IMG/VR virus record: IMGVR_UViG_3300033144_005310
Coordinates: 1-41,990 of that record
Origin: a virus
Reading direction: 5' to 3' (one strand)
Length of the DNA stretch: 41,990 nucleotides
Shown here: one piece after another, positions 18,987 through 41,990 of the stretch
Layout: each line of letters starts with the position of its first letter
Numbering within the stretch: the stretch's first letter is position 1
Program-made: the position numbers and the translations under genes
Notes under the pieces: generated by a model
The model's database searches: none
Seen by the model: the letters and a program-made list of their open reading frames with translations, nothing else
What the model was told of the DNA's origin: nothing

Positions 18987-19184
18987 TTATTTTTCTTCTT
19001 TTTGACAGTTAAAACAGAGTATTTTTTTAAAGTTTTTAATACTATATTCTTTAATCTTATCTGATACTTTTACTCCACATTTATAACAAACAGGTTCTAA
19101 CTTCTCTTGTGTTCCTTTGTTTAAATCAATATTAGGTATATATTCTTCTGCTGTTTTATCTTTTTTATCACATCTCTTAAACAT
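18987..19184 (-). CDS. Segment 3 (Zn-ribbon C-terminus) of the doubly frameshifted gene
   Basis: Its own ATG has no SD and lies inside the RAKARCLRD motif of segment 2. The frame is -1 relative to segment 2, entered at A_AAA_AAG. Confidence 0.55.
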   Translation of the reverse strand: MFKRCDKKDKTAEEYIPNIDLNKGTQEKLEPVCYKCGVKVSDKIKEYSIKNFKKILCFNCQKEEK

Positions 19185-19357
19185 CTTGCTTTTGCTCTCG
19201 TATGTGCCATTTCAACAAAATGTGCTTTTACCATTGCACCACAATTAGATTGTGTTCCACTTCCTACACCCATAAATTCTTTATCCCCAACTTTACAAGA
19301 AACAACACACCAAGCAGATTGATTACCCCAATCAACTTCTAAATTAACTACTCTCAT
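19121..19357 (-). CDS. Segment 2 of the doubly frameshifted gene (conserved AHTRAKARCLRD motif)
   Basis: No SD. Frame is -1 relative to segment 1. The tail after the slippery site is low complexity (IKQQKNIYLILI). Confidence 0.6.
   Translation of the reverse strand: MRVVNLEVDWGNQSAWCVVSCKVGDKEFMGVGSGTQSNCGAMVKAHFVEMAHTRAKARCLRDVIKKIKQQKNIYLILI
19160..19166 (-). promoter_or_regulatory. Slippery heptamer A_AAA_AAG (candidate -1 frameshift site 2)
   Basis: Incoming frame reads GTG ATA AAA AAG. A -1 shift reads GAT AAA ACA GCA, which is segment 3. Confidence 0.5.
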
Positions 19358-19362
19358 TTCTG

Positions 19363-19449
19363 TTATTTTTTTTCATGTGCTAAATCAAGTAACCCATTAT
19401 ATGTTACAAAATCTTTTCCCTTAATATTTACAATATATTTTTTATCCAT
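19363..19449 (-). CDS. Segment 1 (28 aa) of the doubly frameshifted gene
   Basis: SD GGGGG. MDKKYIVNIKGKDFVTYNGLLDLAHEKK, then TAA directly after an A8 run. Confidence 0.55.
   Translation of the reverse strand: MDKKYIVNIKGKDFVTYNGLLDLAHEKK
19366..19372 (-). promoter_or_regulatory. Slippery heptamer A_AAA_AAA followed by TAA (candidate -1 frameshift site 1)
   Basis: GAA AAA AAA TAA. A -1 shift reads ATA ACA GAA ATG AGA, running into segment 2. Confidence 0.5.
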
Positions 19450-41571: not shown

Positions 41572-41880
41572 TTATTCTATAATAGAACAACCTTGATTAT
41601 CACAACTATATTTTACTCCAATATTCTTTTCTGTTATTATTTGTTCTTGCTCAAAGTCATTTTCAATTTCCATCCAACCACTTCTACACAATTTATTTCC
41701 AATTTCTGCATTCCAACATTTTCCACTATCTAATCCATAATATGCTGTTAATTTATCACATTGCATAACTATATTTCTATCTTCACAAAAATAAGTATCA
41801 TCACTTAAAATATTTACTCCACCTAAAAATAGGATAGAAGTTAAAAATACACTTAATATGCTTGTTTTAATTTTATCCAT
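41572..41880 (-). CDS. Small exported Cys-rich protein
   Basis: 102 aa. Signal peptide ILSVFLTSILFLGGVNI. YFCEDRN and CRSGWMEIE motifs are shared with the 831-aa LTD protein. Confidence 0.7.
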   Translation of the reverse strand: MDKIKTSILSVFLTSILFLGGVNILSDDTYFCEDRNIVMQCDKLTAYYGLDSGKCWNAEIGNKLCRSGWMEIENDFEQEQIITEKNIGVKYSCDNQGCSIIE

Positions 41881-41990
41881 TTATTCCTCCACTAATTATA
41901 TTTATCTCACAAGTTCTTAACCACCAAACTGCTTCTTCATGAACTGGTGCTGCATATGCGGCTTGTATAAGTAATAAACTTTTCCAAGTA
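41873..41990 (-). CDS. 3' end (with stop codon) of the wrap-around ORF 1..1448, seen in the duplicated terminus
   Basis: ...SGGING then TAA at 41873-41875. Same sequence as 1-114. Confidence 0.8.
   Translation of the reverse strand, partial: TWKSLLLIQAAYAAPVHEEAVWWLRTCEINIISGGING
41877..41990. repeat. Terminal direct repeat, copy 2
   Basis: Identical to 1-114. Confidence 0.95.

Follow-up and report, generated by a model that had tools for sequence, protein, structure and literature searches.

Two one-base frame breaks at A-runs divide a predicted Rad52-fold annealing-protein gene of an AT-rich phage, with no support for programmed frameshifting

In a survey of frame transitions (Antonov et al. 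2013, GeneTack; PMC3711429), singletons validated by BLAST were regarded as errors or recent indels, and recoding was accepted only for conserved clusters. The heptamer A_AAA_AAG is the most shift-prone one in Escherichia coli, and A_AAA_AAA is much less so (PMC5009743). Bacterial RNA polymerase needs at least 7 T to slip, and more for A (PMC6260861), with appreciable slippage found only at runs of about 9 (PMC5009743, PMC6260861). We examine here a minus-strand gene at 18987..19449 of the IMG/VR virus record IMGVR_UViG_3300033144_005310, using a stretch of 41,990 nt that we call the window and to which all coordinates refer. The initial annotation had presented this locus as one early gene split into three open reading frames (ORFs) by two sequential programmed -1 shifts. 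Our analysis indicates that the three ORFs are indeed one gene, which is well supported, and that the programming of the two shifts is not supported by any of the tests we ran. We tentatively attribute the breaks to real and recent one-base deletions, at most with some leaky rescue by slippage.

The whole gene encodes 154 amino acids when both frame breaks are bridged. Its homologues, an AlphaFold2 (AF2) model and Foldseek comparisons predict a Rad52-fold product similar to single-strand annealing proteins (SSAPs), with a zinc ribbon at the C-terminus. The three ORFs are found on the minus strand where they had been reported. ORF 1 (19449-19363) encodes 28 amino acids and corresponds to segment 1 (19363..19449), i.e. 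residues 1-28 and a TAA stop, which covers a beta-hairpin and the helix 17-26. It is the only one of the three with a Shine-Dalgarno (SD)-like sequence, GGGGG at 9-13 nt 5' of its ATG. Segment 2 (19121..19366) provides residues 29-97, with three strands and the conserved helix EMAHTRAKARCLRD, and then runs through a 12-codon out-of-frame tail to a stop. ORF 2 (19357-19121, 78 amino acids) has no SD-like sequence 5' of its start. Segment 3 (18987..19160) provides residues 98-154, i.e. a linker and a CxxC...CxxC zinc ribbon (C122, C125, C146 and C149), and the ATG of ORF 3 (19184-18987, 65 amino acids) is also without an SD and lies out of frame within the ARCLRD codons, so the earlier description of both internal starts was correct.

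Both frame breaks are located at A-runs. The first is the A8 run at 19366..19373, between residues 28 and 29, where the minus strand reads CAT GAA AAA AAA TAA, with A_AAA_AAA in frame at 19372-19366 and the zero-frame TAA (19365-19363) abutting the run. Immediately 5' of this break the -1 frame has a TGA (19375-19373), and hence the sole stop-free path between the two frames passes through the A8 run. With A9 in place of A8 the frame would be intact. The second break, at 19160..19166 between residues 97 and 98, has A_AAA_AAG in frame in the context GAT GTG ATA AAA AAG ATA AAA CAG, and the zero frame reaches its stop 12 codons on, after the tail IKQQKNIYLILI. Either A7 or GG for G would keep the frame here, and G (AAGGAT to AAGAT) is as plausible as A for the missing base. 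Both heptamers conform to X_XXY_YYZ in the frame that enters them. When a base is read twice at each of the sites (-1 at A8 and -1 at A_AAA_AAG), the result is a continuous fusion of exactly 154 amino acids, as had been proposed. The nested products had been put at 28, about 100 and 154 amino acids; the first and the last of these sizes hold, and the middle product has 109 amino acids.

The three ORFs are parts of one gene, since about 40 relatives are unbroken across both junctions. Using the fusion as the query, we found four homologues of 160-178 amino acids (P0001-P0004) with 46-56% identity, which cover 95-100% of it, and four more in the same size range (L019 and L032-L034) align over the same proportion. 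The alignment is gap-free through junction 1 (LLDLAHEKK/ITEMRVV against LLDLAHTKGLNDMRVI, the slash marking the junction) and through junction 2 (ARCLRDVIKK/DKTAEEY against ARALRDILNVDMVSLEEL). About 40 related loci were collected by scanning IMG/VR, JGI metagenomes and GTDB genomes and from the contigs encoding P0001-P0004. The tblastn match in each of these loci is one segment in a single frame, and none has a second segment in another frame. Junction 1 (28/29) is covered in all of them but L025 and L029, which match residues 59-151 only, and the matches either stop at residues 92-95, the end of the core domain, or continue through junction 2 (97/98). Whether homologues span both junctions as uninterrupted proteins had been named as a check; they do, and three independent genes were not seen in the relatives.

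The conserved residues of the family are all retained. The fusion has 19 of the 19 residues invariant in the family and all six that are invariant in the zinc-ribbon subfamily, and these are spread over the three segments. Segment 1 holds the family-invariant G11, K12, F14, G19, L20, L21 and H25, segment 2 holds A46, G63, N69, M81, A82, T84, R85, A86, K87, R89, R92 and D93, and segment 3, which matches phrog_13782 with E 2e-6, holds the subfamily-invariant C122, C125, S137, C146, C149 and Q150.

The predicted structure places the two breaks very differently. We built the AF2 model of the 154-residue fusion with the family alignment, and its mean predicted local distance difference test score (pLDDT) is 85. 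Residues 1-97 form a compact core with block mean pLDDT of 85-97, in which a beta-hairpin and the helix 17-26 are followed by three strands and then by a long basic helix, residues 78-95, that carries MAHTRAKARCLRD with the motif MAxTRAKARxLRD. The linker 98-115 is predicted to be disordered (pLDDT < 50), and the CxxC...CxxC zinc ribbon occupies residues ~120-154, with pLDDT > 90 for 121-154. Break 1 falls in the loop between the helix 17-26 and the strand 29-40, inside the conserved core, and the model is confident across this junction, which agrees with a single gene. The 28-residue product of the zero frame would hence be a domain fragment with no plausible use. Break 2 falls at the end of the core helix and the start of the disordered linker. 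Core-only members of the family with 113-127 amino acids exist naturally, and so a truncation after break 2 should be tolerable.

We read the gene product as a minimal Rad52-fold SSAP, based on the similarity of its predicted fold. The model shows the core elements of the Rad52 superfamily, i.e. the beta-hairpin, the helix, the three-stranded sheet and the long basic helix. Foldseek against PDB matched it to the N-terminal domain of human Rad52 (1h2i, E 5.8e-4), 5xs0, Mgm101 (9yi6) and Sak of phage 80alpha (8pq8), and against the viral models of BFVD to proteins named ERF, Sak3 and Rad52/22, with modest template modelling (TM) scores of 0.3-0.55. No annealing-protein family of Pfam (Rad52_Rad22, ERF, Sak3 and similar) was matched by the fusion or by 16 family members at E up to 0.1, and a sequence profile search of PDB returned nothing at E up to 1. 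We therefore dropped an assignment to a named family by sequence profile, and the fold comparison is the sole lead. PHROGs places the family in phrog_22961, labelled 'unknown function', and a relative in the Rossellomorea phage phiT1 is annotated as 'DNA repair and recombination protein' and is flanked by replication genes. The family is large: a library clustered at 50% identity contains 3,976 representatives of it with E up to 1e-3.

The accessory modules vary within this family. Among P0001-P0168 we observed an N-terminal SWIM zinc finger, a C-terminal zinc ribbon, a C-terminal helical domain, or none of these. The gene that follows a core-only annealing protein in L014/L015 (3303-3740) and in L036 (4478-5110) begins with a CxxC zinc-ribbon motif, joined in L014/L015 to pentapeptide repeats. 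Phages of this kind may thus provide the zinc ribbon in trans.

We consider real one-base deletions the best explanation for the two breaks, with a probability of roughly 0.4. In this lineage, two A-runs prone to mutation would each have dropped a base recently, codons 27-29 going from A9 to A8 and codons 96-98 either from A7 to A6 or from GG to G. The first deletion would have removed the selection on the gene, or might itself have been selected, and once the gene was inactivated or its loss was favoured, a second break in the same gene is to be expected. As written the gene would make chiefly a useless 28-residue peptide. Occasional slippage of the ribosome or the RNA polymerase at the A8-stop and at A_AAA_AAG may yield traces of the 109-residue core and of the 154-residue full-length protein, and such rescue products would reflect leakiness and not design. 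We infer that the phage DNA itself, and not just its assembly, carries the deletions and that any rescue is only leaky.

Several observations weigh against this explanation. All 19 + 6 invariant residues are intact and no further lesion is seen, so the inactivation would have to be very recent, and the intact residues are equally expected with an assembly error or with an expressed, recoded gene. Both breaks need a shift of -1 and both permit perfect re-pairing of tRNA-Lys, a coincidence that would arise by chance about 1 time in 12. The nearest relative is 56% identical, and at this distance a real deletion and a consensus error are not separable. No near-identical copy for a comparison of run lengths was found in the phage GenBank collection, either by blastn with distant settings or by megablast, with the whole window. 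An exact-pattern scan of IMG/VR that allowed any length of the A-runs found no copy of the locus, and no relative exceeded 56% identity when IMG/VR, JGI metagenomes and GTDB genomes were scanned with protein patterns.

An artefact of assembly or base calling is a possible, somewhat less probable alternative to the deletions. The phage would then truly have A9 and A7 (or GG) and an intact 154-residue gene, and the two homopolymers would have been under-called in a locally poor stretch. Both breaks are deficits of one nucleotide at a homopolymer, a classic under-call, and the conserved residues show no further damage in any segment. The contig was observed only once, and an exact-sequence look-up found the ORFs of the window once, on this JGI contig only. 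BLAST-validated singleton frame transitions have mostly been ascribed to sequencing error (PMC3711429). The rest of the window, however, speaks against this explanation. Besides those at issue, 97 A/T runs of at least 6 bases are in frame inside ORFs, including seven 8-mers and a single A9. This A9 (20528-20520, in ORF 20609-20277) had already been cited as a sign that blanket homopolymer error is not evident, and the census of runs confirms it. No second broken gene was found in the 42 kb, and all other ORF junctions have normal starts. The contig is otherwise a clean one, with an exact direct terminal repeat of 114 bp (1-114 and 41877-41990), which indicates a complete phage genome of ~41.9 kb, circularly closed or terminally redundant. 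Taken together, the 97 in-frame runs, the normal ORF junctions and the complete genome exclude a blanket homopolymer error. The run at site 2, A6, is short for a consensus error on most platforms. The gene (465 nt) holds 4 of the ~100 runs, so two independent random errors would fall in one gene with p ~0.03, an awkward fit for random assembly error. We also considered the terminal repeat as a clue to the sequencing platform and set this aside, as an overlap of 114 bp is no standard k-mer size.

It is unlikely that the two breaks are an evolved double recoding signal. Translation would start at 19449, and a fraction of the ribosomes would shift by -1 on A_AAA_AAA with TAA in the A site, or the polymerase would add an A on the A8. 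A second fraction would then shift by -1 on A_AAA_AAG, giving a set ratio between the 109-residue core and the 154-residue core with its zinc ribbon. Several features fit such a design. Both sites have X_XXY_YYZ in the incoming frame and both shifts are -1, the second heptamer is the one most prone to shifting in E. coli (PMC5009743) and recurs at the probable G/GT site of this phage, and tssM of Citrobacter, which is rescued by slippage in transcription, likewise has an A-run directly in front of a stop, albeit an A11 (PMC4256274). Break 2 is located exactly at the boundary between core and linker, where two isoforms would be sensible, in line with the natural core-only relatives, and the conserved residues 3' of both breaks are all retained. 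The tests of conservation and of stimulatory elements nevertheless point the other way.

Slippery heptamers are cheap in this genome. The initial annotation had stressed that both heptamers are canonical; the sites are present as described, and their evidential weight is slight, the heptamer being a test of low specificity here. We counted 118 in-frame X_XXY_YYZ heptamers in 75 ORFs, including 10 A_AAA_AAG and 17 A_AAA_AAA, and 27 poly-A heptamers of these two types are in frame elsewhere in ordinary genes. The genome has 28% GC and uses AAA for 922 of 12,487 codons, which explains why a match to the heptamer comes so easily.

Neither the frame transition nor the motif is conserved among the homologues. 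None of the ~40 related loci shares a frame break, the closest relative being only 56% identical, and in the four nearest relatives, checked at the DNA level, both sites are free of A-runs and of other slippery motifs, the sequence in the nearest ones being AAA GGT TTA (site 1) and TTA AAT GTA GAT (site 2). We considered whether a frameshift might be conserved at the boundary between the core and the C-terminal domain and rejected this, because in relatives whose match stops at about residue 95 each -1 or +1 ORF further downstream proved to be a gene in its own right, with an ATG. The overlaps 3' of the core-only relatives contain no slippery heptamers, the sole exception in this survey being an A7 in L034, which lies at the very end of a full-length gene, past the zinc ribbon. 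An alternative genetic code was also rejected, as table 11 leaves the long ORFs unbroken and the homologues agree with the zero frame up to the A-run.

No stimulatory element was found at either site. The predicted structure downstream of site 1 has a z of -0.4 against shuffles, and the 85 nt downstream of site 2 fold at -3.8 kcal/mol with z +1.6, i.e. worse than the shuffles. There is no GGAGG-like element within 20 nt 5' of either site. Some known -1 frameshift sites do work without a stimulator. The same phage, however, has a probable frameshift site with both kinds of element, in the locus at 32529-32054 on the minus strand, which synteny and layout identify as a probable tail-chaperone locus of the G/GT type. 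A 97-residue ORF there has A_AAA_AAG in frame near its 3' end (32269-32263), so the reported identity of the second heptamer with that of the G/GT site is right. The -1 frame is open to 32054 and would give a fusion of 158 amino acids, and the locus is directly upstream of the tape-measure gene at 32073-30805 (phrog_58, E 2.5e-13), so that small ORF, heptamer, -1 extension and neighbouring tape-measure gene are all in place. GAGGA precedes this site by 5 nt, and a hairpin of -15 kcal/mol follows it 9 nt downstream. Neither of the two chaperone products has a PHROG match.

For slippage by the RNA polymerase, which typically takes a run of at least 9, the A8 at site 1 is borderline and the A6 at site 2 is too short (PMC6260861, PMC5009743), and no phage-encoded single-subunit RNA polymerase was seen among the ORFs scanned. 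A_AAA_AAA is far less shifty than A_AAA_AAG, and the yield of the full-length protein would be the product of two efficiencies, which is ill-suited to a putatively ring-forming protein needed in quantity. With no break in any relative found and no A-run in those checked at the DNA level, no stimulatory structure, cheap heptamers and a 28-residue product that ends within the core, the claim of two programmed shifts is not supported.

The locus might also be an adaptive loss or switch, i.e. a 'saviour indel' or contingency locus, in which slippage at the A-runs reversibly turns the annealing protein off, e.g. to escape a host abortive-infection system that phage annealing proteins trigger, while a trickle of function is kept. 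Both breaks are in mutable A-runs and their clustering in one gene would fit a selected loss. The lactococcal sak genes owe their name to sensitivity to AbiK. Against this, A-runs are not significantly denser in the gene than in the genome on average (4 runs of at least 6 bases against ~1.6 expected, p ~0.08 by a Poisson estimate), and no runs occur at the two sites in the relatives. Frameshifting that compensates for a saviour indel has been described, e.g. at the G7 run of the herpesvirus thymidine kinase (PMC5009743), and we nonetheless regard a switch as quite improbable here.

That the sequence is correct and under control of one of these kinds is, taken as a single proposal, fairly unlikely. 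It would mean either a two-step slippage, with a P-site slip of the ribosome or a stutter of the RNA polymerase at the A8-stop acting as a throttle and A_AAA_AAG then setting the ratio of the core-only to the zinc-ribbon isoform, or a reversible off-switch that evades defences triggered by annealing proteins. If true, either would be the first report of a phage recombination gene under double recoding or contingency control.

A set of three small independent genes, or a protein that assembles from split pieces, with segment 2 translated by termination-reinitiation, is hardly credible. Each segment does have an ATG, and the one at 19357 is only 5 nt past the stop of segment 1, which would permit translational coupling. 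However, no relative has the split form, the ATG that opens segment 2 corresponds to an ancestral internal Met (DMRV/EMRV), that of segment 3 is out of frame in ARCLRD, lacks an SD and precedes the segment 2 stop by 63 nt, and break 1 cuts a single compact domain.

All genes in the window are on the minus strand, and the putative annealing-protein gene sits in the early/replication module. Two genes encode HNH endonucleases, one in the tail module (34272-33583, between the ORF 34499-34272 and the minor tail protein gene 33586-32552) and one in the early region (18093-17530), 0.9 kb downstream of the annealing-protein gene; both are possibly homing endonucleases. The gene at 13790-12624 encodes a 388-residue fusion protein that combines a ParB N-terminal domain with an N6/N4 DNA methyltransferase, and it is located just upstream of the gene for a helix-turn-helix protein, a possible small terminase, and of the large terminase gene at 12024-10486. 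The same strand has small Cys-rich, zinc-ribbon-like ORFs at 18986-18768, 18590-18354, 10508-10251 and 10269-10009. The one at 10508-10251 starts with TTG after the large terminase gene and was considered as another broken gene; its perfect GGAGGT SD shows a normal gene.

Should indels or assembly errors account for the breaks, the lesson is one of annotation: the three small ORFs are best joined under the label of a single frameshifted recombinase gene, and slippery heptamers in AT-rich phages are not to be read as recoding unless they are conserved. If the sequence is correct and both shifts are efficient, the locus would offer a rare example of a non-structural phage gene controlled by two successive frameshifts. 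As a recoding discovery the locus ranks low, its useful outputs being the corrected annotation and a pointer to a large unnamed Rad52-fold family. The family is the more useful by-product: it has ~4,000 clusters at 50% identity and no Pfam model, and its members seem to be minimal annealing proteins of the Rad52 fold whose zinc-finger modules can be exchanged.

Among the described systems, the singleton transitions of the GeneTack survey (PMC3711429) resemble the locus in being validated by homology, not shared by relatives, located in A-runs and without a conserved motif or stimulator. The locus differs from them in having two transitions in one short gene while ~100 other runs are intact, and in having both on in-frame -1 heptamers. 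With -1 frameshifting of the dnaX type or the tail-chaperone G/GT type it shares, at site 2, the identical heptamer in the correct frame with a zero-frame stop soon after, and a position at a domain boundary where short and long isoforms are conceivable, in a phage that has a G/GT-type site of its own. Unlike those systems, site 2 has no upstream SD-like element and no downstream hairpin and is unconserved, and a prior shift inside the core domain would be obligatory. Rescue by poly-A slippage, as in tssM of Citrobacter/Yersinia (A11), Thermus dnaX (A9) and the poly(A) genes of endosymbionts, resembles site 1, where the A-run abuts the stop and an extra A in the mRNA would restore the frame; however, site 1 is only A8, polymerase slippage is poor below ~9 A, the A6 of site 2 is too short, and the run is unconserved. 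For the protein, the closest systems are Rad52, ERF, Sak, Sak3 and Mgm101. It differs from these in the lack of a Pfam or PDB profile match, in TM-scores of only 0.3-0.55, in a very small core of ~97 residues and in unusual accessory domains, i.e. the C-terminal zinc ribbon here and the N-terminal SWIM finger in some relatives, and it resembles them in its predicted core topology, its Foldseek matches and its position in the early region of a phage.

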